The translations under genes were made by a program, and so were the position numbers. The notes below the pieces were generated by a model. It did not search any database and was not told where the DNA came from. It was given only the letters and a program-made list of their open reading frames with translations. Below, one piece after another: positions 3,674 through 40,358 of a stretch of 64,000 bases of DNA. The DNA is from Spirochaetaceae bacterium (GTDB lineage Bacteria; Spirochaetota; Spirochaetia; DSM-2461). The stretch's first letter is position 1. Each line of letters opens with the position of its first letter. Location: positions 1 to 64,000 of the forward strand of contig JAOPTT010000002.1 in NCBI GenBank assembly GCA_051531975.1. The letters are read 5' to 3'.

Positions 3674-3675
3674 TG

Positions 3676-3981
3676 TTATTTACCTTTCCTCTGTACATAT
3701 TTTCTATCATAATCCTTATGTAGTAAGAACTCTACAATCAATATACTTTGTCTTCTGTAGTCTATAGCAGTTATTAGTCTATATGTCCCACCACATATAT
3801 TGAAGCAAGTATACATATTTTTATATCCAACCGCATCTGCATGCCGTATAGACTCCCTTAACTCTATGATATGCTTTGGGTGAATATTACTTATATTCTT
3901 AATCCAACCGTTAATAGACTCTCTAGCTGTAGGATATTTATTAACAATCCTACGTAGTTTGGCTTCTGTTTCAATTATCAA
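3676..3981 (-). CDS. higB: HigB-family mRNA interferase toxin
   Basis: ADAVG...TCFNICGGTYRLITAIDY...LLHKDYD matches the HigB FNIxGNxYRL...HxEYD pattern; toxin-first gene order. Confidence 0.85.
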   Translation of the reverse strand: MIIETEAKLRRIVNKYPTARESINGWIKNISNIHPKHIIELRESIRHADAVGYKNMYTCFNICGGTYRLITAIDYRRQSILIVEFLLHKDYDRKYVQRKGK

Positions 3982-23619: not shown

Positions 23620-24032
23620 GAATCGCTCCTTAATATTTTTTTGTGAAAAACCCATTTATCAAAAACAAAAAATTTAACTATCATTAAAAACCCTGTAACA
23701 AGAAAAATAGATATTTGTAAATGTATGCTAAGTATAGTACTTAATATTAATACAAAGAAATAGTCTATTAAATTAAATACCAGAACAAAGGATAGATAAC
23801 TTAGAAACCGTCCTTTTAGTCCACCTTTAACTTTAAATGTAACTAAAACGTTATAAAAAAAGTTATAACAAATTACGATAGGTAGAGTTAAACCATATAC
23901 TAATGGAGTTCCAAAGTTTGTAAACTCAGAATACAGGTAGGATATTAGTGCTTTTAAGAAATAACTCACTCCCCCACCTAATATAAAAAACATAAACTTT
24001 TTAGAGAAGTAGTACTTTACCAGTTTTTTCAT
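23616..24032 (-). CDS. GtrA-family lipid-linked sugar flippase
   Basis: 138 aa, four TM helices; FMFFILGG, YNFFYNVLVTF, KFFVFDKWVF. Confidence 0.8.
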   Translation of the reverse strand: MKKLVKYYFSKKFMFFILGGGVSYFLKALISYLYSEFTNFGTPLVYGLTLPIVICYNFFYNVLVTFKVKGGLKGRFLSYLSFVLVFNLIDYFFVLILSTILSIHLQISIFLVTGFLMIVKFFVFDKWVFHKKILRSDS

Positions 24033-25540
24033 TTAACTTCTTCCATTGTTGTCTCTTTAAGCTCAAATGGAAGTCGGTAACTTACTATTATTTGATTAGA
24101 ACTGTTGTTATCTAAAAAAAGAAATTGTCTACCTGATTCTAAAATTTCTTTATGAGTACTATAAGAACCAATACCATTATCTAATTGCAGAAACAGTCTG
24201 TTAACTGTATCTAAACTTTTATGGCTTAATCTTCTGCCTAATGTGAAAACATCATTCTCTAAATATGTTCCAAAAGTTCCACCTAAATCTTTTACTCTAT
24301 TAACCTCTTTCTCAAAATTAATAGTTTTAATAAAGTTGTGTTCAGAGGGTTTCAGAGGATTATTAAGATAGTTACCTGCTGATTTTGGTAAAAATGGTAA
24401 GATTATTGCCATAAAACAGATTAGACATAGAGGTAATACAAATGTAGATAAAACTATTAGTTTATTATCCATAAGCCTGTTTGCAACTGGTACAAAGCTA
24501 AATAGAGTCAAAGATATTAACATTGCAAAAAGTGGTAACAGTGGAGAGAAGTATCTAACAACAAAATCTTCCATTGGAATAAAAGGATTAACACTTTTAA
24601 TTGCAAAAGTAAGTATAAACATAAAAGTTATTATTACAGTTAATAACATTCCTACTTTCTGGGGCTGGATCTTATTCTTTAATAAAATTATTCCAGCCGC
24701 AATACCAGGCCAAGTAATTAAATGCCAGTATATTGGAAAGTTTTTAAAAGAGTAACGTTCAAAAAGACCTAAAAATGTACCATCAAACTGAACACCTTGA
24801 CCTAAAGTCATTGAACCACTACCAAAGTGGGTAGATAAAATTATTTCTAACCTTCCCATAGGGTAACCAGCAAAAACAGCATAACAAAAATGCTCAATTG
24901 AATATAAACCGGCTAAAATCAAGCAATATATAAAAGCAGACTTCAAAGATGATCTTTTAATAAGTAGTATTACCCAAGGAATCAATACATATAAGTTTGT
25001 TATTTTTGTCTCATACGCAATAAATAAAAATGTCACAGACAGGGCAAAATAGAGTTTTGACTTTCTACTACCTTTCTCTAGATCAAAAAATCTAAGTAAA
25101 AAATAGAGACTAATCAATACATAACTTATTGAGAACAGTGCTAAAAACAGTTGGCTTCCAATTCTAATTGTATAGGGGAAAAACTGAAATATAACTATTG
25201 ATAAAAATGCAACTTTTGAGCTAAAAAGGTATTTACCTAATTTGTAAATTACACCGTTTAGAACCAGAGTCATAAAAATAGGAATAAGATAAATAACCCA
25301 GGCTGAAGTTCCAAATATGAGCTGAAATAAGGCTATAGGGAATAAAATTCCCCACCTAATACTTCTATGAAAGAGCTCCCCATATGGGTAGTTATTTAAT
25401 AGAGCCTTACCATAATACCAATAGTCAATATTATCACCACCAGTATTAACTTCCATTAATGTTAGAAGCCTCAGTAAAACTGTTAAAATTGAAAATATTA
25501 TAAAAATCTTTAAATCTGAACTTAGCTTTTTAATTTTCAC
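24029..25540 (-). CDS. GT-C fold membrane glycosyltransferase (ArnT/PMT-like, GtrC equivalent)
   Basis: Many TM helices; Asp after TM1 (GGDNIDYW); IYKLGKYLFS, AYETKIT, VRYFSP; adjacent to GtrA and GtrB. Confidence 0.7.
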   Translation of the reverse strand: MKIKKLSSDLKIFIIFSILTVLLRLLTLMEVNTGGDNIDYWYYGKALLNNYPYGELFHRSIRWGILFPIALFQLIFGTSAWVIYLIPIFMTLVLNGVIYKLGKYLFSSKVAFLSIVIFQFFPYTIRIGSQLFLALFSISYVLISLYFLLRFFDLEKGSRKSKLYFALSVTFLFIAYETKITNLYVLIPWVILLIKRSSLKSAFIYCLILAGLYSIEHFCYAVFAGYPMGRLEIILSTHFGSGSMTLGQGVQFDGTFLGLFERYSFKNFPIYWHLITWPGIAAGIILLKNKIQPQKVGMLLTVIITFMFILTFAIKSVNPFIPMEDFVVRYFSPLLPLFAMLISLTLFSFVPVANRLMDNKLIVLSTFVLPLCLICFMAIILPFLPKSAGNYLNNPLKPSEHNFIKTINFEKEVNRVKDLGGTFGTYLENDVFTLGRRLSHKSLDTVNRLFLQLDNGIGSYSTHKEILESGRQFLFLDNNSSNQIIVSYRLPFELKETTMEEVK

Positions 25541-25543
25541 AAA

Positions 25544-26281
25544 TTATACCTTATAGAACTCTGTACATTCTCTATCTTCTGGGCAATCAACTTCCATCCA
25601 ACCATTATTAATATAAACAGCACTTAATGGAGTTATGTTATCCCCTATTAACTGTAAAAAGGAGGTCATGTACATGTTGTTATAATCTTTACCATCGTAA
25701 ATTTTATCTTTATCTAAACCGTGATAAAAAGTTCTAATCTCTTTCATAGCGTCTTTAGAGAACTTCATCATTCCAATATATTGACCTTGAATTTGATCAT
25801 AGGAAGTAGGTTTTTTACCAAGTTCTTTAATTGTATCGTCTGGGTTTAAGATCATTGTCTCGGCATCATCTAGTGGGTTAGGCATTCTTGCAGCCCAATA
25901 CTCTTTCCAACCCTTATCTACAATTACAGAAACTTTTTTATCTGATTTTATTAGTTTTTCTAGAACTTCATCTTTATAGATAATATCTCCATAAGTAATA
26001 ATTATTTCATCGTCCATTATCTCTTCTGCAGAGAATAGAGATGTTACCATATTTGTTGTTTCAAAATCTTTGCTAAAGTGTTTTGTTGTGCCTGGGAAGT
26101 CTATTACATCTTCTCTATACCCTGTAACAATATGGATATCTGTAATATTCAGACGTTTAAATACATCTAATTGATACTCTATTAGTGGTTTACCCTCTAA
26201 CTCAACCATACATTTTGGTATATTGTCTGTTAATGGTCTTAATCTAGTTCCTTGTCCTGCTGCTAAAATTATTACTTTCAT
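25544..26281 (-). CDS. Cytidylyltransferase, LicC/Cj1416 type (putative CTP:phosphoglutamine cytidylyltransferase)
   Basis: LAAGQGTRLRPLTDNIPKCM, TNMVTSL, YGDIIY, DDAETM, GQYIGM, GWMEVD. Confidence 0.8.
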   Translation of the reverse strand: MKVIILAAGQGTRLRPLTDNIPKCMVELEGKPLIEYQLDVFKRLNITDIHIVTGYREDVIDFPGTTKHFSKDFETTNMVTSLFSAEEIMDDEIIITYGDIIYKDEVLEKLIKSDKKVSVIVDKGWKEYWAARMPNPLDDAETMILNPDDTIKELGKKPTSYDQIQGQYIGMMKFSKDAMKEIRTFYHGLDKDKIYDGKDYNNMYMTSFLQLIGDNITPLSAVYINNGWMEVDCPEDRECTEFYKV

Positions 26282-26922
26282 ATCTGTTTATCCTTTAAAA
26301 AGTTTTTTATTAATATATTATCAAAAGACTCATTTTGTCTTTCTGGGTGCCATTGCACACCTAAAACTGGAAGTGTTTTGTGAATAAAAGCCTCTACAAA
26401 ACCATCTGATGTTGTTGCTATAACATTTAATTCCTTGGAAATATCATCTAATTTAAGTCCCTGGTTATGGAATGTATTTGTAACAACATCGGACAGTACT
26501 TTGTGTTCAGAAATTAACTTGTGTGGCTTTCTTACATGATCTTTAATTCCATGGGTTATTGTTCCACCAAAAGATACATTTATAAAATGAAAACCTCGAC
26601 ATATTCCTAAAAGTGGTATATTCAATCTGTTTGCTTCTCTTAAAAGTAGCTCCTCAGTTTTGTCCCTTTCTGGATATACATCAGAGAGTTTATCTGTTGA
26701 CTTATATAGTGATGGATCTACATTATTACCACCAATTAATACAACACCTTCAATACCTTGTATTTTAAAATAATCTAATACATTAGCTGAGTTATTTGGA
26801 ATTAATATAACCATATAACCTAGCTTTTCAAAAAACTCGATATATTCATAGGCTATTATATTACTAACTTCAATATAGTTAGGATTCTCTACAACCTTTG
26901 TAGAAATTAATAACTTTTTCAA
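26278..26922 (-). CDS. Class I glutamine amidotransferase/peptidase C26 (putative gamma-glutamyl-CDP-amidate hydrolase, Cj1417-like)
   Basis: GGNN, ERDKTE, LGICRG nucleophile elbow, QWHPER; context. Confidence 0.82.
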   Translation of the reverse strand: MKKLLISTKVVENPNYIEVSNIIAYEYIEFFEKLGYMVILIPNNSANVLDYFKIQGIEGVVLIGGNNVDPSLYKSTDKLSDVYPERDKTEELLLREANRLNIPLLGICRGFHFINVSFGGTITHGIKDHVRKPHKLISEHKVLSDVVTNTFHNQGLKLDDISKELNVIATTSDGFVEAFIHKTLPVLGVQWHPERQNESFDNILIKNFLKDKQI

Positions 26923-29900
26923 TGTATCACCTCTATTTTTTTACCTAAACAGTCCAGATAAATAGTGCTGTGTCTGCTAACTTTATCGTAGATACTATCT
27001 CCACAACCGATGGCTGCTGGTAGATCAAACTCTGCACACCGGATTGCCATATGGGAGTTTGTTCCACCATATTTTGTTATTAGACCAGCGATATTATGGC
27101 TAAAAATCCAATCAAAGCCAGGATCGGCATTTTCTATACAGACTATTTTACCCTCTATATCACTTTCACTGCCTTCTAAGACTATAATTTTACCTGTAAT
27201 CTGTTTCTGAGTTACAAAATTTGGTTTAGATTGGGCTAAAAAGAAATAATCTAGATCTTTTTCGCTTAAGATTATTTCTGGTAGTTTAATTGCCGAAGTT
27301 ATTAAGTGTTTTGACTTCCTATACTCTATTTTATCTATCCACTCATTTACTATATTTGAAGATATTGAACCGTATGCTCCAAGCTTTATATCTTCTACCA
27401 TCAGATAGGATGCATCAGAACTAGATATACCAATAGATTCACAATACTCTTTAATATAATCTAGGGCCATGGAGAGGTTTTTACTAAACTCAAATTTTGC
27501 TAACTCCCTACCCTCTGTTGCCTTTCTAATAAAGTTAAAAAGTATTGTAGAGTCAAAAGTAAGACCTTGGTCTGATAGAATATTATCAATTTTGAATAAC
27601 TGATCCGTTGTTAACTCAAAAGTAATATTTTCTTCTTTGGCTGGTTTATTATCTAAGTTAATATAGTGATCAAAATCCTGATGATAAGCTGATGAAGAAA
27701 CTTCGTAGGTACCAGGTCTTAGATGCCCATATTTTTTAATTAGCTGTTTCCGATCTCCACTATGGATATCAGTTACAAACTCTTTTGCAACAGTGTGTAC
27801 CGACTTAAAAAAGGTATCGTAGTCTGAATCTGATATTATTTTTAACTCTCTTAGAGATTTAAGTAGTATTACTCCCATAAAACCAAATCTGGCTAAGTTA
27901 GAAAATGGTAGGGTTCCCTTCTCTTTTGTTGAATCTAATAATATTATAACTTTTGAAAGTAGATCAATATTGGATTTTTTCAGATTCTCTCGAACTTCTT
28001 TTAGTGATCTGGTTTTATCTAACTCTTCATCTATAGATATAGTCTCTTCTAAAATTATAGAGTTGGTTAAACTTAAAAATGCACTGTTAATTTCTAGTAT
28101 TTCATCCCCAGTAAATCCATGTCCTTTTAGTTCTAATAATCTACGTTCAATTGTTAAATCGTAGGCTGTAAAAGCTACTAAAAATTCAACTTTATCGTGG
28201 TATTCAGGGTGTTTATTAAGTTTATCTATGTAGTAGTTAATCAGTTTATGGGCAGTTTTATCACTTAAAGATTTAGGAGTAAAGCTATTAAAGCTCATTC
28301 TAATATCAACATATGGTTTTCCACTAAAAGATAAGATACCCGGGTTATTTAGAGTATCTCTATAACCACAATCAACCCTGCTTATTGGCCATATTCTATC
28401 TGTAATAATCTCTTTATAGAGAGAAAATGCTAAAGGTTTAGGGTTTATACCTATAATCTCTGCTGGGTTCCAATCTGGCATAACTCCATATGCAGTTTTA
28501 TTACCAACTAACTTATGACTTCTGTTTTTATCCTGTTTAATATAGTCCCTAATAGCACTTAACTCGTTAGTTATATCGTTATTAAATACTTTTAAATCAT
28601 CTTTATGGGCTGCAATTGGTCTAACCTGTAAGATATATAACTTTCCGTTTGAAAATGCAAACTCAATATCTAATGAGTTAACTCCAGTAAAAGTCTCTAT
28701 CTCTCGAACAGCTAATATAAGTTCCTGAATATTTTTATCTGCAGGTAGATTGTTACTAAACTTATAAAAGATAAGTGTATGATGTTCACCTTTACTACCG
28801 GCAGTTATACTCTCAGTTGAACCTGATAGATCGTAATTTATGGTGTAATATGGTGCAGATGTTTCTAGATCTTTAGTAAAAAGGACTCCACACATAGTTA
28901 CGTCTTCTAACATCGGTTGTACTAAAATCTGGTTCAGAGGATTTTGTTCCTGATCCCCTTTAAGGTAACTATCTATTACTAATTTAGCACCTCTATGGAT
29001 ATCATTTTTATCATTAATATCAATGTTTAAAATGCTTTCATAATTTCCAGCCATAGAGCTATTTTCAGTATCTTCGTTTAGGGCTGAACTTCTAATAACA
29101 AGTTTATTTGAACTGAATTTTTCCTTTATTTCAGAAATTACACTGTCCTGGTTATTTTCATAATCCTGAACCACAAAACTATATTGTGGTAAAACAGTAG
29201 ATTTTGATAACTTATTTTCTAATGTTCTAAGTGTTTCAGCTTTAGTACCAAACTTGAAACGATATAGATCTTGGGATGAGTCTAATTCAGCCCATCCACC
29301 TTTTATATCTATTATCTCTGTTTTGCATGTTATAGATAACTCACCAATAAAATCTATAACGGATTTAAGGCCTTTATCTAAAGATGACTTTATCACTTCC
29401 GAAAATTTAGAAACTATACTTTTTTTAATAATTATTAGACCGGTAAACTCTCCTAATGCAGAACTAATATCCCCAACTTTAGAAACCTTATAACCAGATC
29501 CAGAACTGTATAATTTCTCAGCTTCAACCAAGAATTCATCAGTTCGACCTTCGTATCTTTTAGACCATAAACTATCGTAGGATATAACAAACTCAGCACT
29601 AGAAGAGAGTAGAGACTCTATTACTGCAGGTGAATAAACAATATCTGAATAGGATATAATAATATCGTCATTAAATAGGCTTATAGCTTTATATAGAGAG
29701 TATAAAGATTGGGTTTTACTCCATTTCTCATTGTAAAAGTACTTTAAACTTGGATAGTTTGACATTATTTTCTCTATCTCAAAACCACCAACTATATTTA
29801 TATCTTCTATACCATTTTTATTAAAAGCCTCTAAAGCCTTATCTAAAATTGTAGAATTTTTATCAAAATCTTCTAGACATTTTGGAATAGATTTATCACT

Positions 29901-29948
29901 ACTTAAGTGGATATTTCCTTTCCCTGCTGCTAAAATTATACCTTTCAT
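26919..29948 (-). CDS. Fusion of an N-terminal nucleotidyltransferase domain and a Cj1418-like L-glutamine kinase
   Basis: aa 1-~232 NTase (ILAAGKG, YSDIVY, GWAELD); then FGTKAETL, IRSSALNED..SMAG, GVLFT, DIEFA, ILQVRPI, MPDWNPAEIIG, YGHLRPGTY; C-terminal phospho-His domain ADPGFDWIF...GGTNSHMAIR; no PEP-binding barrel. Confidence 0.82.
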   Translation of the reverse strand: MKGIILAAGKGNIHLSSDKSIPKCLEDFDKNSTILDKALEAFNKNGIEDINIVGGFEIEKIMSNYPSLKYFYNEKWSKTQSLYSLYKAISLFNDDIIISYSDIVYSPAVIESLLSSSAEFVISYDSLWSKRYEGRTDEFLVEAEKLYSSGSGYKVSKVGDISSALGEFTGLIIIKKSIVSKFSEVIKSSLDKGLKSVIDFIGELSITCKTEIIDIKGGWAELDSSQDLYRFKFGTKAETLRTLENKLSKSTVLPQYSFVVQDYENNQDSVISEIKEKFSSNKLVIRSSALNEDTENSSMAGNYESILNIDINDKNDIHRGAKLVIDSYLKGDQEQNPLNQILVQPMLEDVTMCGVLFTKDLETSAPYYTINYDLSGSTESITAGSKGEHHTLIFYKFSNNLPADKNIQELILAVREIETFTGVNSLDIEFAFSNGKLYILQVRPIAAHKDDLKVFNNDITNELSAIRDYIKQDKNRSHKLVGNKTAYGVMPDWNPAEIIGINPKPLAFSLYKEIITDRIWPISRVDCGYRDTLNNPGILSFSGKPYVDIRMSFNSFTPKSLSDKTAHKLINYYIDKLNKHPEYHDKVEFLVAFTAYDLTIERRLLELKGHGFTGDEILEINSAFLSLTNSIILEETISIDEELDKTRSLKEVRENLKKSNIDLLSKVIILLDSTKEKGTLPFSNLARFGFMGVILLKSLRELKIISDSDYDTFFKSVHTVAKEFVTDIHSGDRKQLIKKYGHLRPGTYEVSSSAYHQDFDHYINLDNKPAKEENITFELTTDQLFKIDNILSDQGLTFDSTILFNFIRKATEGRELAKFEFSKNLSMALDYIKEYCESIGISSSDASYLMVEDIKLGAYGSISSNIVNEWIDKIEYRKSKHLITSAIKLPEIILSEKDLDYFFLAQSKPNFVTQKQITGKIIVLEGSESDIEGKIVCIENADPGFDWIFSHNIAGLITKYGGTNSHMAIRCAEFDLPAAIGCGDSIYDKVSRHSTIYLDCLGKKIEVIH

Positions 29949-30604
29949 GATCCCTTCTTATGTAGAATTAACATCTTTATTAACGAATATATATTATTAA
30001 ATGTCCAATATAATAACAGTCCAGCCGGGGATTTATATAGTAAAACTAAAAACAGTAGTGCTATTCCTACTAATTTAATTTTTTCACTTTTAATAAAACC
30101 TTTACTGTAAAAAAATGATGAAAAAAGATTAAAAAATGTCATGATAAATGGCATAACGTTTATAAAACCTAATATACCATCCTGGGTACCAAGGTTATTT
30201 AAAAACAGAAAACTTTGTCCCTGTAGTACCTCTAGGTTTGATAAAAATGTATAAGCTGCAATGAAAAATGGAACTTGTATAAAAAAGCCTAAAGTAGAAC
30301 GCAGACTATAAATAGGATGATAGGAGTATTTTTTATATAACTCTGTTGTTTTTATATACTTCTCTTCACCTTTAAAACTACTATTTATATCTTTAAGTTC
30401 TGGTCTCATGGAACTTTGAATATCTCGTTCTCTTTTTTGTAATTTCTCTGCATAGTTATATATAGGTATTAACAGAGTATTTACAAAGATACTTAACAAA
30501 ATTATAGATATACCATAACTACTAGTAAAATCAACCATGAAGCCTAAAAATAGATCCATTATAAATACTAAGGGTCTAATAAAAATCAGTTCAAAAATGT
30601 TCAT
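29945..30604 (-). CDS. Minimal YidC/Oxa1-family membrane protein
   Basis: SYGISIILLSIFVN, coiled-coil ...MRPELKDI, IQVPFFIA, FLFLNNL, PAGLLLYWTFNN. Confidence 0.8.
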   Translation of the reverse strand: MNIFELIFIRPLVFIMDLFLGFMVDFTSSYGISIILLSIFVNTLLIPIYNYAEKLQKRERDIQSSMRPELKDINSSFKGEEKYIKTTELYKKYSYHPIYSLRSTLGFFIQVPFFIAAYTFLSNLEVLQGQSFLFLNNLGTQDGILGFINVMPFIMTFFNLFSSFFYSKGFIKSEKIKLVGIALLFLVLLYKSPAGLLLYWTFNNIYSLIKMLILHKKGS

Positions 30605-31716
30605 AATGTTCCTCTAATATCTAATAGTTGTTTTACGGCAATCTTTCCAACATTACCAAAATTAAAAAGAGATTTTTCTCTTAATTTAGTAATGTCTTCT
30701 TTAAAATTATTGTCATTTAACTGTCTGTTTATAACTTCAATTATATTCGATATTTTATCTTGAGCTACTACAGTTCCTAAACTCTTTCGAACATCAAGTT
30801 CCCAAATAGTCTTAGAAGTCAGATCTTCGAACTCCATACCTTTTGGCTCGATATCGTAGGATAGTGATATAACAGGTTTTTGATATATAAATCCAAAATC
30901 AAATATTACACCAGAAAGATCCGAGATCATTATATCTGCACTGTTTAAACTGTCATGACCACTAGGGCTATAATCCCATCTGATATTTGAATATTTTTTA
31001 GTTTTATTTAAAATATCTTTTAGAAGCTTCTTTTCTGAAACTAACATCTGGGGATGAGGCCTAACTATAACATCAAAACCATTCTCTAATATATCAATTA
31101 AAAAGTTAGTACCATATTTTGAGAAGGCACCATTAACACCCCATGTAGGAGCAATTAATACACACTTAGGACCATCTTTTTCAATTACTTTAGATTCATT
31201 TTCTAAGTTAGAAGCTAATACATCCATATAAGGACATCCAGTTTTTAATAAAACCTTCTCTTTTGAACCTCTAATTTTTTCTAATATTCGAATTGACTCT
31301 ATCTGGTGGTTTCCAGAACACATTATATAATCAAAATGATCAAATGAATATTTTCTATATTTACCAAAATCTATTGGTGAATGAACAATATGTATATATT
31401 TTTTTACCCCTGGAGACCTTTTAATAGTTAAAGTTTGTAAACCAGGTGTTGTCATAAGTACTGTTCCAGCTTCTAACATGTTCATAAATAGAAGAGAAGC
31501 AAATCCAGAACCTATATAATAAGGTTTCAAATATTCTGAGGCTATTATTATCCCAGGATCATTTATATCCATGGAGATGTAGGAGAACTTAATTTCTTGT
31601 TTTATTAATTCTTGGATTATAGGTTTAAAAGTAGTAAAATAATTATCATTTTCAGAAAACAGTACAATTTCACTATACTCCTTAGAAAAATCTTTTAATT
31701 TACTCTTTTTTATCAT
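30601..31716 (-). CDS. CDP-glycerol glycerophosphotransferase (TagB/TagF) family protein
   Basis: MTTPGL, HIVHS, GCPYMD, VLIAPTWG, VRPHPQ, ADIMISDLSGVIFDF. Confidence 0.82.
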   Translation of the reverse strand: MIKKSKLKDFSKEYSEIVLFSENDNYFTTFKPIIQELIKQEIKFSYISMDINDPGIIIASEYLKPYYIGSGFASLLFMNMLEAGTVLMTTPGLQTLTIKRSPGVKKYIHIVHSPIDFGKYRKYSFDHFDYIMCSGNHQIESIRILEKIRGSKEKVLLKTGCPYMDVLASNLENESKVIEKDGPKCVLIAPTWGVNGAFSKYGTNFLIDILENGFDVIVRPHPQMLVSEKKLLKDILNKTKKYSNIRWDYSPSGHDSLNSADIMISDLSGVIFDFGFIYQKPVISLSYDIEPKGMEFEDLTSKTIWELDVRKSLGTVVAQDKISNIIEVINRQLNDNNFKEDITKLREKSLFNFGNVGKIAVKQLLDIRGTL

Positions 31717-31906
31717 CGTCCTGGCTCTCTACACTTTTTTTAGATTTGAATATTTTATAAAAGAAACCTTTAAAAACATACGCCAAAGTTGCGAAAACAC
31801 CAATTATTCCGGAAACAATCATGCTTCCAGTTCCTGGGTCTAAATAAGCACTTGCCTGTATTAAAATTAACATTAAAAACATTACACTAAAAAATATCTT
31901 TTTCAT
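31700..31906 (-). CDS. Small membrane protein (signal peptide, YLDPGTGS motif, TM helix)
   Basis: 68 aa; starts 3 nt after the upstream stop and overlaps the downstream gene; ASA|YLDPGTGSM. Confidence 0.8.
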   Translation of the reverse strand: MKKIFFSVMFLMLILIQASAYLDPGTGSMIVSGIIGVFATLAYVFKGFFYKIFKSKKSVESQDDDKKE

Positions 31907-31909
31907 CTA

Positions 31910-34123
31910 TTATTCTCCATTAACTGTTTCATTTACCCAGTTATTTTTATCAAATACACTACCTGAAACACTAAATTCACTTATAAAGTTATATTTATTA
32001 TACTCATTTCCTGTTAACTTCCAAGGAGTAATAAAGACTTTTAGACTTCTATTTAAATCGGGGTAGTTAATAGGGTCATTTTTCCCTAAAACAGAGCTCG
32101 CAATGTCGTAGGTATCGGCATTAGAAAGTAGCAGATCTGATACTTTTAAATCCCCACCGGAGTCTATTTCTTTTACCATCATTATTGGATGAACTCGACC
32201 AGTAGGAACTAGAACTTCCCCAGAATCGTTAAGTAATTCAGTAAAGTCAAAAAACATATCGCTTGTTCCAGAAACACCATGATCTGAGACAATTATTATT
32301 TTACTATTATTATATACATTGTTCTCTTTCATCCAATTAAACCAGTCTACAAGTAGGTTAAAAGAGGTCCTATATGTATCTAATACAACTTTAGGATTTA
32401 TATAGTTTGTATTATTATCTCTATTTAATATCTGCTGTGGATTAGAACTCATATATGTTTTTGTAACTTTACCATCTTCATCTAATCCAAAAGGCATATG
32501 TGTTAAGTTATTTGCAAAAAACTTAACTGTTTTAGTTTTTGAATCTGTAGTGGATAATTCAGGTAACATTTTTAGTACAGAAAAATTTTCTAATATATGA
32601 GTAATAGTACTGCCACCATTATTTGTTTTTAGCCACTTACCCTTAGAGTATATTCTTGATTTAAAAATATGAGGAGATGATTTAAATAGACCAATAGCCA
32701 TAAATAGACCTCTATAATCAATTGATTCTGTTAATTTATTAACTTCATTAACGTTTTTACCGAGAGACTTCCATTTTGAAAATATATCCTTGTTGGTATA
32801 ATAATTTATATCATTGTCTTCAAAAACTGATTTATCCCAAATATAGTAGAGTCCACCAAATGAGATATCATATCCTTTTTTACCAAAGTCCTTAGAATAT
32901 TGAGTATAAGCTAAGTTATATTGTTCTTTTATATCGATACCCTTTTTATTTATACTGTCCGGTGTAAAATCTCTACCACCTATAAGACTAGGCATGGATG
33001 TATATGTATTATTGGATATTGATATTGTATTAGGGTACCAGGTAAAACCTTTTAACTCACTTTCTAATTCAGGATTATCTAATAGCAGTTCTGGAATATA
33101 ACCTGCACAAAACATATCTAACATTATAATTATTACATTTTCTTCTTTAGAGAATTTAAATGCACTTAAATCTGAACTTTGGGTATTAGAGAAGTTTTGT
33201 TTAGTAGATTTTTGTTTAAATGTAACTATATTTCCAACTGTTTGTCCAAAACTCATTAGGTTAAGAATAACTAATATTGGTAATACTATTTTTGTTTTGT
33301 ATATAAACAGTAAAATAAAAGCCACAAATGATATAAAAATTAAAAACAACTCCAATAATTGTCGAACTTTTCCAAGTTTTAAGTTTTCTGCTTTAGTTAA
33401 TATTACACCATCTAAATTTCCAAAATCACCTGGTAGTAGATAGGAATAAACCCATGTCATTAGGGCTAAAAAAGTTATAAGCAGTAATAATAGGACCTTT
33501 CGGTTAAAACTAAATATTTTAACTATCCAATATAAGGCAGTAATAACTATAGCTGAAAATAGAATTAATGATATTACTATTTTTAAGCTCTCATCATATG
33601 TTTTTGCAGATGAAAAAAGTACATTAAGTGGTGAATATAAAAATGTATTGGCAATTAAAAGAATCAGGGATAAAACTGCAATTTTGTTAAAATTATCAGA
33701 AACATTTTTAGTTAAACTTTTTATCTTATTAACATAGTTATCAGAAAAACAGTAGAACAAGGATATAACCATTGAGATAAATGCTTTCAATGAACCAGAC
33801 TTGATAAAACCAAGGACATAAGAGTTAGAAGTTTCTGACTTCATATCAAATGTAAATGTAACAAATAACATCTTAAAAATTAAATATCCAGACAAAATAA
33901 GGGTTAATATTGAAAGTGATAAAAATATAAAGTATTCGATATTTTTTTCCATAAGTTTAAGTAGCTTAATTAAAAATAGGGCAGCAACTATAAATAGAAT
34001 TAAAAACAGACCTTCTCTTACTAATAAGATATCCCTGTGAATAAAAGAAGCATTCGCCCCTAAAAAGCAGAAGAGACCTAATATAAACTGTATTAGATCT
34101 CTATTTTTTGATATTTTAAACAT
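31910..34123 (-). CDS. Multi-TM protein with an extracytoplasmic alkaline-phosphatase-superfamily (LtaS/sulfatase-like) domain
   Basis: About nine TM helices, then IIIMLD, NNTYTSMPS (Thr nucleophile position), THMP, VSDHG, LSNAD. Confidence 0.78.
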   Translation of the reverse strand: MFKISKNRDLIQFILGLFCFLGANASFIHRDILLVREGLFLILFIVAALFLIKLLKLMEKNIEYFIFLSLSILTLILSGYLIFKMLFVTFTFDMKSETSNSYVLGFIKSGSLKAFISMVISLFYCFSDNYVNKIKSLTKNVSDNFNKIAVLSLILLIANTFLYSPLNVLFSSAKTYDESLKIVISLILFSAIVITALYWIVKIFSFNRKVLLLLLITFLALMTWVYSYLLPGDFGNLDGVILTKAENLKLGKVRQLLELFLIFISFVAFILLFIYKTKIVLPILVILNLMSFGQTVGNIVTFKQKSTKQNFSNTQSSDLSAFKFSKEENVIIIMLDMFCAGYIPELLLDNPELESELKGFTWYPNTISISNNTYTSMPSLIGGRDFTPDSINKKGIDIKEQYNLAYTQYSKDFGKKGYDISFGGLYYIWDKSVFEDNDINYYTNKDIFSKWKSLGKNVNEVNKLTESIDYRGLFMAIGLFKSSPHIFKSRIYSKGKWLKTNNGGSTITHILENFSVLKMLPELSTTDSKTKTVKFFANNLTHMPFGLDEDGKVTKTYMSSNPQQILNRDNNTNYINPKVVLDTYRTSFNLLVDWFNWMKENNVYNNSKIIIVSDHGVSGTSDMFFDFTELLNDSGEVLVPTGRVHPIMMVKEIDSGGDLKVSDLLLSNADTYDIASSVLGKNDPINYPDLNRSLKVFITPWKLTGNEYNKYNFISEFSVSGSVFDKNNWVNETVNGE

Positions 34124-34125
34124 AT

Positions 34126-35193
34126 TTAACCTACTATCTCTTTGATTATTCCATTAAATCGATCTTCTAAACCATCTAATTCATTTTTATAAATGTTAAA
34201 AGCGTTGTCTATAATATTTTCTCTTTCTGTTTCATTTTCTAGATAATAACTACCTTTAGAAACCATATCAGAGAGATCCCATTTAAAGGGAACGTAGGTC
34301 TCTCCTGGAATAAATATATCAGGCCATGTTTCTAAGTGGGACATATCAGGTTTAAGCAGTAGAGATCTATTATATACAGCTTCAAAATCTCTTTTACAAA
34401 GTTCTCCCCAGCCAAATGGGCTAAGAATTATTTTAGACTCTTTAATCTCTCTATTAAACTGTTTCTGGTCTACCCTACCATTTAGAAAATCTGGGTTATC
34501 TTTAATAATTTCAACAATTAATTTTCTTTGATGATGTATACTTTTTTTTGCTGGGAAACCAAGTCGACCATGTATTTTATATTTTTTTACAGAACCAACA
34601 ATACCTGCTCCATCCCAGAAGTTTCTATGATATAAAAACTTAACAAATATAGGCCCAAAAGCTCTAGCAATAACAACTCCAATTCGCTGTCTTAATTTAG
34701 TATTAGGGAAATCTGTTACACCAATATTCCAGGATAGTCTTAATTTATCTAATAAAGATTCATCGGTTAGAACTTCTCGAATTATAGGTTCTGGATCAGT
34801 AACTCCATGCTTTTCATGATGATATTCAGAGAACATCTCATCTCCATAAAAAGTTTTTTTATACAAAGAACGGTCTTTAAAAAGTGCTTTATTATAAAAT
34901 AGATCTACATAGGGTAAAACTTCAGGTCTATGAATAGCTCCACCTGCATTTCCATTAAAGAAAGCAATTCTTTTATACTTTGAACGAAGCTTTTTCATAA
35001 ATTCTAAATCGACAACATCAGGTTTCAAAAACCACCGAACCATAATAAGTATACTATTTTTATCTTTATTCAAAACATATTCACTACTATTAGTAAACTT
35101 AAATCTTTTACACTGCTTCGAAAAAAGAAATGGCTTTAAACTGTGAAAAAGAGACAATCTATCATAAAATGCTAAAACTGTTATATCTTTCAT
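34126..35193 (-). CDS. GT-B fold glycosyltransferase
   Basis: SKIILSPFGWGELCKRDFEA, LLLKPDMSHLETWPD, GETYVP. Confidence 0.7.
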   Translation of the reverse strand: MKDITVLAFYDRLSLFHSLKPFLFSKQCKRFKFTNSSEYVLNKDKNSILIMVRWFLKPDVVDLEFMKKLRSKYKRIAFFNGNAGGAIHRPEVLPYVDLFYNKALFKDRSLYKKTFYGDEMFSEYHHEKHGVTDPEPIIREVLTDESLLDKLRLSWNIGVTDFPNTKLRQRIGVVIARAFGPIFVKFLYHRNFWDGAGIVGSVKKYKIHGRLGFPAKKSIHHQRKLIVEIIKDNPDFLNGRVDQKQFNREIKESKIILSPFGWGELCKRDFEAVYNRSLLLKPDMSHLETWPDIFIPGETYVPFKWDLSDMVSKGSYYLENETERENIIDNAFNIYKNELDGLEDRFNGIIKEIVG

Positions 35194-35349: not shown

Positions 35350-35643
35350 TTAAACACTAAGTTCTATATGATTTTTCTTAATATTATCCTGAAACTCTTT
35401 TGGTAAATCAGCCCAGATAAATAGATCCACTCTAAATGTTATATCACTCTCTTGTAAAGATTCACGAAGATTAAAAACATTATCATTATTATTAGTAAAA
35501 ACAACCATATCTAGATCAGAGTAGTTACTATACTGTTCTGTTATCCGAGAACCATAAACCCACACGACCACATTAGGAATATTATCTTTAATAAGTAATT
35601 TTAATATATTTTGATCTTTTGTAGAGATACCTAATTTATTCAT
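35350..35643 (-). CDS. Minimal nucleotidyltransferase (MNT) antitoxin, pair 1
   Basis: VYGSR...SDLDM, RVDL; start placed at ATG 35643, overlapping the HEPN stop. Confidence 0.85.
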   Translation of the reverse strand: MNKLGISTKDQNILKLLIKDNIPNVVVWVYGSRITEQYSNYSDLDMVVFTNNNDNVFNLRESLQESDITFRVDLFIWADLPKEFQDNIKKNHIELSV

Positions 35644-36049
35644 GATACTCAATAATCTTAGAATATAATAATTTAGCATTTTTTATAAAGTCTTCCATTA
35701 AACCGATAGATTCCAGGGCCTTTTCTCCATTATAGTCGTGGGATGTACTTATTCTGGCACTTGCATAACTAAACCACTGTTCAAGGGAACTGTCTAAAAG
35801 AGAGTTTTCAGCTGCAATTCTAAGTATAGGTTTAGGACTATTTGGAACATCAGGTATACCAAGTTCATGTATAAGATATTTTTTTAACAGCTTCCATAGT
35901 GTATCCCAACATGTCTCAAAACGCTGTATAACAGACTCTTGTACAGCCTCTTGAATCAATATATCCAAAGAGGGGTTAAGTGTTCTATAGTTATTATACT
36001 GTAATTCTAAGTTATTTAATGACTTAATAAACTTACTATAATCAATCAT
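35636..36049 (-). CDS. HEPN protein (nucleotidyltransferase substrate-binding, HI0074 type), pair 1
   Basis: IQRFETCWDTLWKLLK, SPKPILR, RISTSHDY (RX4H). Confidence 0.85.
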   Translation of the reverse strand: MIDYSKFIKSLNNLELQYNNYRTLNPSLDILIQEAVQESVIQRFETCWDTLWKLLKKYLIHELGIPDVPNSPKPILRIAAENSLLDSSLEQWFSYASARISTSHDYNGEKALESIGLMEDFIKNAKLLYSKIIEYHE

Positions 36050-36117
36050 AGTTAATGTTACTATCTATTAGAGCTATCGTCTAGAGAAGTTTAAAGCTTC
36101 TTTTTTAAGGGTTATAT

Positions 36118-36414
36118 TTATAACTTAAGAAGCACAGAGCTATTTTCAACTTCTGTGGATAACAGTGAGTCTGAAGAGTGATACTGAACAAAATCAACTT
36201 TTAAATCAAAATCTCTTATTGCTAAATAAGTAATAACTTCTATCCTCTTCTTTTTAAACTCTGCAGAGCTAATGTTTGTATCAATCGCAATATCAATATC
36301 TCCGCCTCTTTTACTATCGTCTACTCGACTACCAAATAGATATATATTGACATCATCAAAATAGGTATTTATAGCATTGACTAGAGTTTTAATAATACGT
36401 TTTGATACTCTCAT
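36118..36414 (-). CDS. MNT antitoxin, pair 2
   Basis: YLFGSRVDDSKRGGDIDI, KVDFV. Confidence 0.88.
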   Translation of the reverse strand: MRVSKRIIKTLVNAINTYFDDVNIYLFGSRVDDSKRGGDIDIAIDTNISSAEFKKKRIEVITYLAIRDFDLKVDFVQYHSSDSLLSTEVENSSVLLKL

Positions 36415-36887
36415 GTTAAATACCTATTTGCAAATTGAATGCTGTTTAGATAATAGAGCTCTATCTTAGAAAAATTATCTATACAAAATTTTAAGTCTTT
36501 TAAAGCTTCAGTAAGGTTTTCAGGATAATCGTGTTCAAGTTCATTTCTAACCTCTCTGAGTTCTATCCAACTGTTTAATGAGTCTATAATTTCTTCATTT
36601 TCGATATTATATAAAACTTCACTCATTTTAGAACTATTAACTCCTGCAACTTCAAGTAGCAGAGGGAATACCTTTGCACCTAAAAAGTCCTGTATAGAAC
36701 TAAATCTCTTAAGATAAGCATCTAAAACAGCTCTATCTGTAACACCTAAAGCTTTGAATATATTAGGTTCATAAATATTAGTAGTAGAAGTCATCTCTTG
36801 AATATAAATATAGTAATCTTTAATAGCGATATAATGTTTCTCTAACTTACCTAATCTTTTTTTAAGAATTTCTTTGCTATTTATCAT
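36411..36887 (-). CDS. HEPN-domain protein, pair 2
   Basis: DAYLKRFSSIQDFLGAKVF, WIELREVRNELEHDYP (RX4H); start could be 36887 or 36911. Confidence 0.82.
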   Translation of the reverse strand: MINSKEILKKRLGKLEKHYIAIKDYYIYIQEMTSTTNIYEPNIFKALGVTDRAVLDAYLKRFSSIQDFLGAKVFPLLLEVAGVNSSKMSEVLYNIENEEIIDSLNSWIELREVRNELEHDYPENLTEALKDLKFCIDNFSKIELYYLNSIQFANRYLT

Positions 36888-36932
36888 AATTAAAATACAC
36901 CCCAATACCATATTTACAACACATCTATAGGA

Positions 36933-36961: not shown

Positions 36962-36994
36962 GATAAACAAATGCTATAGATAATGTAAAAGTTA

Positions 36995-37843
36995 TTACCG
37001 CTTTTGTAGTTTGATACATTCTATTTTACTAATTGGTAGTCCAGATATTTTAGATACTTCTTTAATATCCATACCATTGTTAAGCATTTTAACTACTAGT
37101 TCAGTAATTCCTTCCTGACGACCTTCCTGGCGACCTTCCTGACGACCTTTTTCCACTGAAGACTTCTGAATATAGTTATACTCTTTCCTCTTATGCTGTG
37201 CTTCCAGCTCTTCTTCTGTCATTCCAGCTTCATTTACACTATCCAGTGCATCTTTTACATAACAATCAAGGGTTTGTGGTATATACTCCAGACTTCCGGC
37301 ATTCTTAATAAAATATATCCACTGATCCTTAATATTCTCTAATTCTGATAGATCTTTATTAAATTTAGTAAGTTCTATAAATATTAACTCTATATCATCG
37401 GAATACTGTATAAATGAGTCCTTCTCCAATAGTTTAAACCTACTAATAGCATTCTCAGAATCGGGAAACATATTAAAATCAACTATAGTTAATGCAATTA
37501 CAGGGTTTAACAGAGAGTATTCATCTTTTCTTTTTAACTGTAACGAATAATTTTTTGCAGCATTATACAGTATACGTTTCTCAAAACCCTCATGGTTTAA
37601 AACTTGCATCTCTATTATAACTTTCGTTCCATCATCTAATATCGCCTTAACATCTACATATGTATCCTTCATACCCTGAATCATAGGTATATTGTATGGA
37701 TCAACAATATCTAAGTCCTGAATAGACCTACCATTAGGAAAATCAACTAGGGCATTTAAGAAACTAATTAATATTTTTTTATTCTTGGTACTTCCAAAAA
37801 CTTTTTTAAAAGCAAAATCTGTCTTAACATCTAAAAAATGCAT
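36995..37843 (-). CDS. Rpn family PD-(D/E)XK nuclease (putative transposase family)
   Basis: DFAFKKVFG, VDVKA, IIEMQV, KRILYN, FIELTKF, C-terminal EGRQEGRQEG and ISKISGL. Confidence 0.9.
   Translation of the reverse strand: MHFLDVKTDFAFKKVFGSTKNKKILISFLNALVDFPNGRSIQDLDIVDPYNIPMIQGMKDTYVDVKAILDDGTKVIIEMQVLNHEGFEKRILYNAAKNYSLQLKRKDEYSLLNPVIALTIVDFNMFPDSENAISRFKLLEKDSFIQYSDDIELIFIELTKFNKDLSELENIKDQWIYFIKNAGSLEYIPQTLDCYVKDALDSVNEAGMTEEELEAQHKRKEYNYIQKSSVEKGRQEGRQEGRQEGITELVVKMLNNGMDIKEVSKISGLPISKIECIKLQKR
37110..37149 (-). repeat. Three 12-bp tandem repeats encoding RQEG
   Basis: ccttcctgacga / ccttcctggcga / ccttcctgacga. Confidence 0.9.
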
Positions 37844-39562: not shown

Positions 39563-39982
39563 TTAAGGAACTATTTTAATACCTATTTCACTACAGAAAG
39601 AAATAATTGATTTATACTCTTTTGTAGCTATTGCTTTTAATATTTCTAGATTAATCTCTTGATATTCATGTATGGCGATATTTCTAAAACCTGTCATACT
39701 AATCATAGATTTGGATACTGAGCTTGAAATGATCGAATTATTACTTAAAAGAGTGAAAGCCTCTCCACTATTCTGAGGTATACCTAAATGTTTTACAGAT
39801 ACTATATGACCAGCTAAGTCGATTACAGCTTGGCAAGCTCTCTCAATATTTAAAATCATGGCATCAACATGTGTAAAATTATCCAGACTAGGATTAGATG
39901 AAAATTCTTCTAACATACGCCGAAGAGATCTCTCAATTATGGCACCTTTATTAAAAATAATATTATCAGGCTCTATATGCAT
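39563..39982 (-). CDS. hepT: HepT (DUF86) HEPN RNase toxin, pair 3
   Basis: IERACQAVIDLA, GIPQNSGEAF, GFRNIAIHEY. Confidence 0.88.
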   Translation of the reverse strand: MHIEPDNIIFNKGAIIERSLRRMLEEFSSNPSLDNFTHVDAMILNIERACQAVIDLAGHIVSVKHLGIPQNSGEAFTLLSNNSIISSSVSKSMISMTGFRNIAIHEYQEINLEILKAIATKEYKSIISFCSEIGIKIVP

Positions 39983-40358
39983 CTAATATCTCCTTCCGAT
40001 CAATATTAAGTTGAAAATACATTCCTATAAGTGATGAACTATAAATATCGCACTTAGAGACATCTTTTTTATAGATACTTTCACCTCTAAAAAAAGCTTC
40101 GGCAGCATAAACAAGATTCTTAGATGATAATATACCAATATCAACAGATCTACCTAATAAAATCTCTAATTCCCCAGACAAAGTGACTTTATCAAAAGAA
40201 GAAAATTCACAACCATTCTCAAAAAGAATAGCAAGATCTATATCACTATCAGATCTCATTTCACCTCTATAAGCACTTCCAAGAAGATAAACTCCTAAGA
40301 TTCGATTATCATTAATAAAATGAGCTGTAATAATATCTCTAATTTTATCTACATTCAT
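39966..40358 (-). CDS. mntA: MntA adenylyltransferase antitoxin, pair 3
   Basis: YLLGSAYRGEMRSDSDIDLA (GSX10DXD), GRSVDI. Confidence 0.88.
   Translation of the reverse strand: MNVDKIRDIITAHFINDNRILGVYLLGSAYRGEMRSDSDIDLAILFENGCEFSSFDKVTLSGELEILLGRSVDIGILSSKNLVYAAEAFFRGESIYKKDVSKCDIYSSSLIGMYFQLNIDRKEILDAYRA

Follow-up and report, generated by a model that had tools for sequence, protein, structure and literature searches.

A split YidC-like, TagF-like and LtaS/EptA-like gene module in a spirochaete surface-glycan locus, a candidate for phospho-head-group transfer across the membrane

INTRODUCTION

How small charged head groups such as aminoethylphosphonate (AEP), phospho-amino-alcohols, phosphocholine-like groups and phosphoramidate are attached to the surface glycans of bacteria is for the most part an unsettled question. 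What follows the nucleotidyl activation of phosphonates was described as enigmatic in a 2019 study (PMC6697681), and a 2025 paper names the enzymology of methyl phosphoramidate decoration as future work (PMC12409886). Here we describe a locus within a 64,000-nucleotide stretch of a Spirochaetaceae bacterium genome (assembly GCA_051531975.1, contig JAOPTT010000002.1, positions 1 to 64,000; hereafter the window), where four adjacent genes encode a polytopic membrane protein with an alkaline phosphatase (AP)-superfamily domain, a microprotein with the sequence YLDPGTGS, a TagF-like enzyme and a second YidC-like protein, directly upstream of genes predicted to make a phosphoramidate donor activated by cytidine diphosphate (CDP). 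The four genes are the split form of a widespread two-protein module, which we put forward as a concrete candidate for the missing transfer step and which the database name 'YidC insertase' hides.

Several described systems resemble parts of this module. EptA/MCR-1/EptC, LtaS/LtaP, PbgA/YejM and BcsG share with the module protein a polytopic N-terminal part followed by an AP-fold domain, which in the module protein is predicted to face outward, and the Asp, His and Asp-His set of the module protein, with a Thr or Ser at the expected nucleophile position, resembles that of the EptA/LtaS group. The sequence likeness to these enzymes is marginal, however, with soluble sulfatases scoring as well as the membrane enzymes, and the seven to nine membrane helices of the module protein come with a YidC fold, either in one polypeptide or from a neighbouring gene. 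Bulk phosphatidylethanolamine (PE) or phosphatidylglycerol (PG) is the source for EptA and LtaS; the module AP protein instead goes with a cytoplasmic TagF-like enzyme and with genes for CDP-activated donors. TagF, TagB, TarF and TarL belong to the same PF04464 family as the module enzyme, which has APTW and RPHP-type motifs, two invariant histidines that may match theirs and a predicted CDP-activated donor; unlike them, the module enzyme bears or pairs with an anchor of predicted N-terminus-out topology that carries the YxDPGTGS motif, and the donor genes found with it are of AEP, amino-alcohol, choline or amidate type and not those for CDP-glycerol or CDP-ribitol. YidC, SpoIIIJ and Oxa1 share the core fold of the YidC-like part, but the module copy is a second one beside a normal YidC, has lost the groove arginine and is fused to enzymes.

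Other systems share the logic of the module rather than its proteins. The Dlt relay with DltX, together with MBOAT-SGNH pairs such as PatA/PatB, combines a cytoplasmic activated donor with a membrane bridge, an outward-facing transferase and a microprotein whose Tyr motif is invariant. DltX, with this Tyr near its extracellular end, shuttles D-alanine between an inner and an outer enzyme, and sister pathways fuse the motif to an enzyme (PMC12148441). The protein families are entirely different from those of the module, whose predicted cargo is a phospho-group rather than an acyl group. Gtr-type systems (GtrA, a GtrB-like GT2 and a GT-C glycosyltransferase) also load a lipid carrier in the cytoplasm, flip it and use an outward transferase; they move a sugar on polyprenyl phosphate, whereas the module lacks a GT-C and relies on a TagF-like enzyme together with one of AP type. 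Finally, the Campylobacter jejuni O-methyl phosphoramidate pathway shares with the window a row of glutamine-kinase-like, hydrolase-like and cytidylyltransferase genes. In C. jejuni cj1415-cj1418 are described as biosynthesis genes and cj1421/cj1422 as transferases (PMC3907429), and the pathway proceeds via N-phospho-glutamine to 3'-phospho-cytidine diphosphoramidate (PMC6429109). The window differs in that its kinase is fused to a second nucleotidyltransferase, in that there is no Cj1415-type kinase in the genome and no methyltransferase in the window, and in that the transferase role would fall to the TagF/YidC/AP module.

RESULTS AND DISCUSSION

Four abutting genes are the split form of a two-protein module

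The open reading frame (ORF) map of the window contains an 11-gene head-to-tail array on the minus strand (35193-22684), within which the four module genes (29945-34123) abut or overlap each other. A 3-nt gap separates the gene for the AP-like protein of 737 amino acids (aa) from the 68-aa peptide gene, the peptide gene overlaps the 371-aa TagF-like gene by 17 nt, and 4-nt ATGA overlaps join the TagF-like gene to the 219-aa YidC-like gene and the latter to the gene for a 1009-aa protein, the first of three amidate-type genes. On the upstream side a 355-aa gene abuts the module across a 2-nt gap, and six further genes follow downstream. Homologues of the 355-aa gene occurred in just 2 of the 77 related loci introduced below (L043, L048), and this gene is accessory, outside the conserved core. 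The initial annotation of this DNA had described four abutting genes directly upstream of phosphoramidate enzymes, a description that these junctions and the family matches of the products (Table 1) confirm; it had also mentioned fusions of the same domains in other anaerobes, and the survey of relatives bears this out.

For this survey we took one genome per species, which gave at least 643 stretches, at least 618 of them confirmed by tblastn, kept the best 77 loci as chosen via the AP-like protein, and searched their six-frame ORFs with the window proteins. A YidC-like domain was present in 72 of the 77 loci and was fused to the AP-like ORF in 65; in each of the five loci without it the AP-like ORF was cut by the contig start. 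TagF-like genes were found in 64 loci, and the peptide was matched by phmmer in 53, standing at the N-terminus of the TagF-like ORF in 51 of these. A third kind of fusion joins the YidC-like and TagF-like proteins: 26 of 28 longer TagF-like relatives (670–751 aa) had a YidC-like N-terminus and a TagF-like C-terminus, confirmed by Pfam on the two that were scanned. The first homologue search for the AP-like protein had likewise returned six unfused relatives of ~730 aa and eight of ~900 aa with a YidC domain ahead of the membrane-plus-AP part; counted over 13 database homologues, this fusion was present in 8. In the public databases the fused protein is annotated as 'YidC/Oxa1 family membrane protein insertase' or 'hypothetical protein'.

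The two proteins also travel together in the wider phylum. Among 401 genomes sampled without selection via the AP-like protein, scored at E<=1e-30 for the TagF-like subfamily (78 genomes) and E<=1e-20 for the AP-like protein (78 genomes, with two candidates per genome scored with the AP profile), 72 had both genes, 6 the TagF-like gene alone, 6 the AP-like gene alone and 317 neither, counts which include kin and are not independent. Both genes were present in 23 of the 153 genera in this sample, and the module in 9 of 24 genomes of the family of the window organism and in 0 of 3 of its genus, a patchy spread that fits mobile glycan-locus cassettes. The best 77 loci come from Spirochaetia/Treponema (with gut and oral Treponema among the carriers), Bacteroidales, Helicobacter, Steroidobacter, Desulfovibrionaceae, Lachnospiraceae and other Clostridia, Atopobiaceae/Collinsella and Leptospirales, and 22 Atlas clusters of at least 50 members contain a module protein. 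Some loci carry tandem YidC-AP paralogues, up to five, beside a single TagF-like gene, which suggests that the outer enzyme has diversified for different acceptors. Runs of three to five such paralogues were seen in L026, L039 (at least five), L075 and L099. Full-text literature searches, with most subscription journals outside their scope, returned no paper on this domain combination; new here are the fully split four-gene form, the conserved stand-alone peptide beside the YidC-like gene and the sole pairing seen with cytidine diphosphoramidate genes.

A lipid-carrier relay as the preferred reading

We propose, with a probability of roughly 45%, that the module is a membrane-spanning relay that passes phospho-head-groups outward via a lipid carrier. 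In the cytoplasm the TagF-like enzyme, tethered to the membrane through the YxDPGTGS peptide, would accept a phospho-group from an activated donor (CDP-X or a cytidine monophosphate-phosphonate), which here would be cytidine diphosphoramidate from the three directly downstream genes, and would load it onto a membrane carrier, likeliest a lipid hydroxyl as in diacylglycerol or a polyprenyl-phosphate sugar. The next step would fall to the YidC-like fold without its arginine, which would dock the peptide and provide a hydrophilic path for the polar head across the bilayer, and the outward AP-type domain would take over the group on Thr373 and hand it on to a surface glycan, tandem AP paralogues serving different acceptors. 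Gene order, domain identities, fusions, co-occurrence, conserved residues and the variety of donor genes are observed directly; the carrier, the crossing step, the acceptor and phosphoramidate as the cargo are what we infer in this scheme. If it is true, YidC-fold proteins would gain a new kind of job, cytidine diphosphoramidate a second, kinase-independent use, and bacteria a new way to decorate their surfaces with zwitterionic or cationic groups, which are linked to immune recognition, phage receptors and peptide resistance. The four-way split found in the window is handy for experiments, as each part can be expressed, deleted and purified separately.

Several points weigh against this proposal. 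TagF-family enzymes act on sugar or glycerol hydroxyls of lipid-linked glycans and not on bulk lipids, and the invariant Tyr-Asp-Pro of the peptide is unexplained by a purely lipid-carrier model. The two proteins are not always found together: 13 of the 77 loci lack a TagF-like gene, four of them despite long flanks (L041, L058, L062, L070), the remaining ones being short, end-cut or filled with tandem paralogues, and 12 genomes of the phylum sample have one partner alone, some of which may be misses given the two AP candidates scored per genome. With respect to the cargo, the 214-aa hydrolase encoded downstream falls under the NF045546 equivalog cut-off (104.9 versus 250 bits), and the module was paired with amidate genes in this genome alone, as none of 77 genome loci, 8 metagenome loci or 40 relatives showed the pairing. 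It could be mere adjacency inside a large glycan locus.

The YxDPGTGS peptide as membrane anchor or as possible carrier

The 68-aa peptide consists of a signal-peptide-like segment (residues 1–20, ending in ASA), the motif YLDPGTGS at 21–28, a transmembrane (TM) helix and a Lys-rich, then acidic tail. In an alignment of 53 sequences Y21, D23 and P24 were invariant, and G25, T26, G27 and S28 were each kept in at least 90%. The strict motif pattern was found in 55 of the 64 TagF-like ORFs of the related loci; the nine misses comprised four variants (YIDPMSGS, YIDPASTS twice and YLDPGSGN), two loci in Helicobacter metagenome-assembled genomes (MAGs) where the peptide is a separate upstream ORF, and three ORFs cut at the N-terminus or the contig end. 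Outside TagF-like ORFs, the motif occurred in the 1.23 million six-frame residues of these loci just as two stand-alone peptides, both beside a TagF-like gene. The peptide comes in two forms. In spirochaetes and other diderms the Tyr is preceded by a signal-peptide-like hydrophobic stretch with small residues at its end, and in the short form of Treponema, Clostridia and Actinobacteria the protein begins a few hydrophobic residues ahead of the Tyr. Both forms continue with a membrane helix, a Lys/Arg-rich stretch and, if fused, the TagF-like domain. Because the Lys/Arg-rich stretch follows the helix, the positive-inside rule predicts that the motif faces outward, away from a cytoplasmic TagF domain.

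The 68-aa peptide is the detached membrane anchor that most TagF-like enzymes carry at the N-terminus. Six consecutive A stand where the peptide stop and the TagF start overlap (31700-31720, GATAAAAAAGAG), so that gain or loss of a single nucleotide would bring both genes into one frame and give the anchored form common in other loci. We considered whether the split is an assembly artefact and ruled this out, as a separate peptide gene is present in five metagenome loci (four contigs) and in three genomes of the same family. In the nearest relatives (metagenome loci L089, L090/L095 on one contig, L091 and L094), whose TagF-like genes match that of the window at E values of 1e-112 to 1e-121, a separate peptide gene follows an anchor-less TagF-like gene instead of preceding it, and in all eight loci with a separate peptide gene (seven contigs) it lies immediately upstream of the YidC-like gene. 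The peptide had been proposed as a component of the transfer machine in its own right; it does stand as a conserved part of the module, but in most species it is just the N-terminal anchor of the TagF-like enzyme, and its motif is predicted to face outward.

The main rival to the lipid-carrier relay gives the peptide a more active part. Here the invariant Tyr (or the Thr or Ser) of the YxDPGTGS head would be a covalent phospho carrier, the phosphoryl counterpart of DltX, receiving its group from the TagF-like enzyme while in a YidC-like groove open to the cytoplasm and giving it up to the AP-type domain on the outside. The invariance of Y21, D23 and P24 in 53/53 sequences would be accounted for in this way, as would a motif that is exclusive to the module, a peptide that is either a stand-alone microprotein or fused to an enzyme, and the fixed place of the separate peptide gene directly upstream of the YidC-like gene at 8 loci on 7 contigs; we also take the two peptide forms to resemble classical YidC clients, the one a hairpin whose leader can be cleaved off, the other a helix with its N-tail outside. 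Yet with the motif predicted outside and the TagF domain in the cytoplasm the head would have to travel about the width of the membrane, a tunnel-forming enzyme like DltB is absent, and several tandem YidC-AP paralogues share one peptide-TagF gene. We consider a peptide shuttle unlikely, at perhaps one chance in a handful. More doubtful still is the far-reaching combination in which the YidC fold is the heart of a small-molecule relay, the Tyr of the YxDPGTGS head ferries a phospho-, phosphono- or phosphoramidate group through its groove, and unmethylated phosphoramidate is delivered without the Campylobacter kinase and transferases.

A YidC fold without its groove arginine and a probably outward AP-type domain

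The 219-aa protein matched 60KD_IMP (PF02096) at 87.1 bits (cut-off 35) and TIGR03592 at 92.3 bits (cut-off 84.3). It is the sole extra copy in the genome, which encodes a normal housekeeping YidC on contig 13 (196.7 bits, 591-aa frame). By profile alignment the groove arginine of Escherichia coli YidC, R366, aligns to Asn42 of the window protein, and in 68 module sequences this column held N in 32, S in 17, T in 17 and Q in 2, with Arg or Lys in 0/68. We also modelled a natural YidC-AP fusion of 906 aa (Treponema MAG, L013), which was predicted as one compact body with a predicted local distance difference test score (pLDDT) of 92.1 and a predicted template-modelling score (pTM) of 0.87. Residues 1–224 of this model superposed on Bacillus halodurans YidC (3wo7) with Z 18.0 and a root-mean-square deviation of 2.8 Å over 206 residues at 22% identity. 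The fold is that of YidC, and the protein differs from an ordinary YidC. Scrambling of phospholipids in vitro and in simulations has been reported for E. coli YidC and other Oxa1-family insertases (10.1101/2023.09.01.555937), so a path for head groups through the groove of the YidC-like part has a precedent.

The AlphaFold model of the 737-aa protein, built from an alignment of 62 relatives, had a pLDDT of 90.6 and a pTM of 0.85 and comprises ~9 TM helices (residues 7–310) followed by a globular AP-superfamily domain (319–737). Foldseek matched this domain to carrageenan sulfatases (4e-7), EptA 5fgn (8e-7) and LtaS 2w5q (1.6e-6) as well as to YejM and MCR-1, all of them distant, with a top target-normalised TM-score of 0.54 among the matches listed. 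Residues 490–906 of the L013 fusion gave a similar picture, with Z scores of 20.8 for sulfatases, 20.5 for LtaP, 19.7 for PbgA, 18.6 for LtaS, 18.4 for EptC, 18.0 for MCR-1, 17.4 for EptA and 17.2 for BcsG. Likeness at the level of family profiles is marginal (LtaS E 1.5e-5, MCR-1 E 0.015). Against Pfam the 737-aa protein had no Sulfatase match and reached 21.8 bits for Phosphodiest, below the cut-off of 23, while some homologues do exceed the Sulfatase or Phosphodiest cut-off (P0017 at 54.8 bits, P0015 at 54.5 bits).

Residue conservation helps to place the protein within this superfamily. N329, D336, F360, H542, Y604, N606, D614, H615 and K651 were invariant in 62/62 AP-like sequences, a loop PGDFGNLDG is conserved at residues 231–239, and position 373 was Thr in 59 sequences and Ser in 3. 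A Thr intermediate had been predicted at the outset by analogy to LtaS, and Thr/Ser is indeed kept at the expected nucleophile position (62/62) together with the metal ligands; Thr373 is the putative nucleophile by its position and by the weak MCR-1 alignment (E 0.015). The formylglycine sulfatase motif, which we take to be Cys/Ser-x-Pro-x-Arg, is absent: the residues around 373 read NNTYTSMPSLIGG (NNTYTSMPS). As far as sequence can tell, the residue pattern is that of the phosphotransferase branch (LtaS, EptA). Canonical YidC topology leaves the C-terminus inside. Because seven helices follow the YidC core in the L013 model, the AP domain and the loop PGDFGxLD would lie outside the cytoplasmic membrane, and we conclude from the model that the AP domain probably faces outward.

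These data also bear on a reading in which the YidC-like part serves the AP enzyme and the N-out anchor as a dedicated insertase or scaffold, the AP domain draws on bulk PE or PG, and the TagF-like enzyme separately modifies a lipid-linked glycan at the cytoplasmic face. YidC proteins are established insertases and the fold remains intact (Z 18.0 to 3wo7); among membrane-bound proteins of known structure EptA, LtaS and PbgA come closest to the AP part, and in some complete genomes a donor gene does not adjoin the module. A plain helper would not, however, be expected to have its groove arginine replaced in 68/68 sequences in a genome that retains a normal YidC, and the tight co-occurrence of TagF-like and AP-like proteins, like the fusion of YidC to a soluble cytoplasmic TagF enzyme, is left unexplained. 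Such a helper role seems improbable to us.

Varied donor genes and a possible phosphoramidate link

The lipid-carrier relay calls for a CDP-activated donor, and the initial annotation had pointed to the CDP-donor pathways accompanying the four families as a line to follow. The survey returned varied cytidylyl-donor genes, of phosphonate, choline-kinase and decarboxylase types. We found 47 nucleotidyltransferase ORFs in 35 of the 77 loci, among them Pfam-defined fusions to a class I/II aminotransferase-fold domain (12), a class V aminotransferase (4), a choline/ethanolamine kinase (5) and a HAD phosphatase (3), and one to a phosphoenolpyruvate (PEP) mutase with a second cytidylyltransferase. 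In 22 loci a nucleotidyltransferase gene (22 in all) stood no more than 300 bp from a module gene and on its strand; ten of these were the class I/II (CobD-like decarboxylase/aminotransferase) fusion, and others were fused to HAD or choline-kinase domains. By NCBIfam the class V partner is 2-aminoethylphosphonate transaminase (360 bits) and the mutase is PEP mutase (392 bits); nucleotidyl activation of AEP by such fusions is documented (PMC6697681). The class I/II partner is closest to the threonine-phosphate decarboxylase CobD (155 bits, below the cut-off) or to histidinol-phosphate aminotransferase. Since a related enzyme of C. jejuni, Cj1436, decarboxylates serine phosphate to ethanolamine phosphate (PMC12409886), a CDP-amino-alcohol donor is a reasonable guess for these loci. 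In the nearest relatives of the window a nucleotidyltransferase-aminotransferase gene directly follows the YidC-like gene, in the slot of the three amidate genes of the window, and the donor cassette looks to have been swapped at a fixed slot. Some complete genomes have no donor gene adjoining the module.

Of the three amidate-type products in the window, the 1009-aa fusion matched NF004508 at 918.9 bits (cut-off 501), and its homologues of 48–52% identity are named 'glutamine kinase' by JGI, with closer homologues reaching 69–75% identity; its kinase part belongs to a large family in which a fused form of ~1000 aa is common. The fusion is predicted to carry out the first steps towards CDP-amidate. 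The 214-aa hydrolase matched Peptidase_C26 at 132.5 bits, and its best NCBIfam match was NF045546 (E 5.7e-30). Cj1415, which we take to be a cytidine diphosphoramidate kinase of the adenosine 5'-phosphosulfate (APS) kinase family, has no convincing counterpart in the window genome, whose sole PF01583 match scored 22 bits in an unrelated 592-aa ORF on another contig, and none of the window ORFs scanned had a methyltransferase or sulfotransferase family match.

Elsewhere in the phylum, glutamine kinase was present in just 2 of 400 other genomes (G218, G203). In both, homologues of the 245-aa nucleotidyltransferase occupy the same gene trio, which is accompanied by a gene of the APS kinase family (115 and 98 bits) and by two to three methyltransferases. 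ORFs with weak sulfotransferase-family matches lie next to the kinase and are candidate transferases for a donor resembling 3'-phosphoadenosine 5'-phosphosulfate. There was no module gene near either cluster in the 17 and 33 kb read. The two canonical-looking clusters are L086 (G218:C29, 8388-16401) and L087/L088 (G203:C2); one adjoins ABC-2/Wzt exporter genes and the other a B12-radical SAM gene.

Because the usual kinase, methyltransferases and sulfotransferase-like genes are missing from the window locus, a CDP-using module may stand in place of the usual later steps, and the product is predicted to be unmethylated phosphoramidate. Groups of this kind have been reported on Xanthomonas and Shewanella lipopolysaccharide (PMC3907429). 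That the module replaces Cj1421 and Cj1422, as first proposed, fits these absences, but the claim is held back by an amidate pairing seen once.

The same genes could be neighbours without being coupled: the module would use another donor, such as CDP-glycerol or a CDP-amino-alcohol, and the amidate genes would feed another transferase in the glycan locus. The uniqueness of the pairing to this genome is in keeping with this, as are the CTP_transf_like and CDP-alcohol phosphatidyltransferase genes in the window (Table 1) and several window ORFs without a family. On the other side, the YidC-like gene runs into the amidate genes through 4-nt overlaps, these genes fill the slot of the nucleotidyltransferase fusion of the nearest relatives, and the genome holds no Cj1415-type kinase, nor the window a methyltransferase or sulfotransferase-like partner. 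We find it rather improbable that the two gene sets are unrelated, somewhat more so than that the YidC-like part is a mere assembly helper.

The TagF-like enzyme

The 371-aa protein, which would load the carrier in the lipid-carrier relay, matched Glyphos_transf at 60.8 bits (cut-off 22.1) over residues 121–290. In 51/51 aligned TagF-like sequences H112, the stretch RPHPQ (219–223, including H221), P190 and W192, and D266 and S268 were invariant; H112 and H221 may be the equivalents of the two TagF histidines for catalysis and donor binding. A sequence search of the PDB with this protein gave no match at E<=0.01. That the TagF-like enzyme polymerises a poly(phospho-alcohol) chain which the LtaS-like domain extends or ligates, as in a teichoic acid, would suit the PF04464 match and the fact that the best-known TagF and LtaS members are polymerases, but is very improbable given that the TarL and TarF equivalog cut-offs were missed (28.1 versus 1000 and 24.4 versus 550 bits), that the donor genes point to single head groups (AEP, choline/ethanolamine type, amidate) and not to glycerol or ribitol phosphate, and that the module is common in diderm lineages, inside glycosyltransferase clusters.

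Two longer relatives, P0022 and P0023 (1023–1036 aa), have the anchor motif and TagF-like domain followed by ~600 residues with membrane segments and a GDHG-containing C-terminal part. We considered these as TagF-AP fusions and rejected this, as neither Pfam nor an AP-family profile comparison supports it.

Surroundings of the module

The features of the array and other genes mentioned are collected in Table 1.

Table 1. Positions of the array genes and of further features in the window
Feature	Coordinates	Strand	Basis
355-aa protein, weakly glycosyltransferase-like	34126..35193	-	Glyco_trans_1_2 25.1 bits, cut-off 25
737-aa polytopic protein with AP-superfamily (LtaS/EptA-like) domain	31910..34123	-	AlphaFold and Foldseek
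68-aa microprotein with YLDPGTGS	31700..31906	-	no family match in Pfam or NCBIfam
371-aa protein with TagF-like CDP-alcohol phosphotransferase domain, without a membrane anchor of its own	30601..31716	-	PF04464
219-aa YidC/Oxa1 core paralogue	29945..30604	-	PF02096, TIGR03592
1009-aa fusion of MobA-like nucleotidyltransferase and glutamine-kinase-like PEP-utilising enzyme	26919..29948	-	NF004508, PPDK_N, PEP-utilizers, NTP_transf_3
214-aa class-I amidotransferase-like hydrolase	26278..26922	-	best match gamma-glutamyl-CDP-amidate hydrolase NF045546; Peptidase_C26
245-aa nucleotidyltransferase, Cj1416-like candidate	25544..26281	-	NTP_transf_3 49.9 bits, NTP_transferase 48.6 bits
PMT_2 GT-C (503 aa), GtrA-like (138 aa) and GT2 polyprenyl-phosphate-sugar-synthase-like (323 aa) proteins, genes abutting	22684..25540	-	Pfam
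CDP-alcohol phosphatidyltransferase-family membrane protein	20862..21554	+	
384-aa CTP_transf_like protein	51986..53140	-	
Three nucleotidyltransferase-type toxin-antitoxin-like pairs	35350..36911 and 39563..40358		Polbeta NTase with NTase_sub_bind, HepT-like or unassigned partner
PD-(D/E)XK transposase-family gene	36995..37843		
Paralogous DUF6675 genes	46354..47136 and 48339..49133		179 and 176 bits
HigB-type toxin gene with helix-turn-helix antitoxin-like partner	3248..3981		

Downstream of the amidate genes the array ends in a Gtr-type trio, which scored 40.7 bits for PMT_2, 22.8 bits for GtrA_DPMS_TM (below the cut-off of 26.1) and 83.7 bits for Glycos_transf_2; L089-L095 and L102 likewise have a GT2 of this kind after the module. 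Beyond the array, the window forms a large surface-glycan locus that encodes numerous glycosyltransferases and two initiating transferases alongside a Wzx-type flippase and Wzi-like proteins, and that has genes for rhamnose, GDP-mannose and UDP-glucuronate sugar nucleotides. A promoter and terminator scan of positions 22000–38000 was uninformative (83 promoter-like sites versus 92.3 expected, 6 terminator-like sites versus 5.1 expected), and the base composition of the operon showed no clear departure from the remaining window.

Upstream of the operon, the three toxin-antitoxin-like pairs and the transposase-family gene interrupt the glycan locus and may mark a cassette boundary. Elsewhere in the window, the CDP-alcohol phosphatidyltransferase-family protein and the CTP_transf_like protein are possible alternative users or makers of CDP-activated donors. 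The two DUF6675 genes flank a UDP-glucose dehydrogenase gene in the sugar-nucleotide part of the locus, and the HigB-type toxin gene lies with its antitoxin-like partner near the start of the window.

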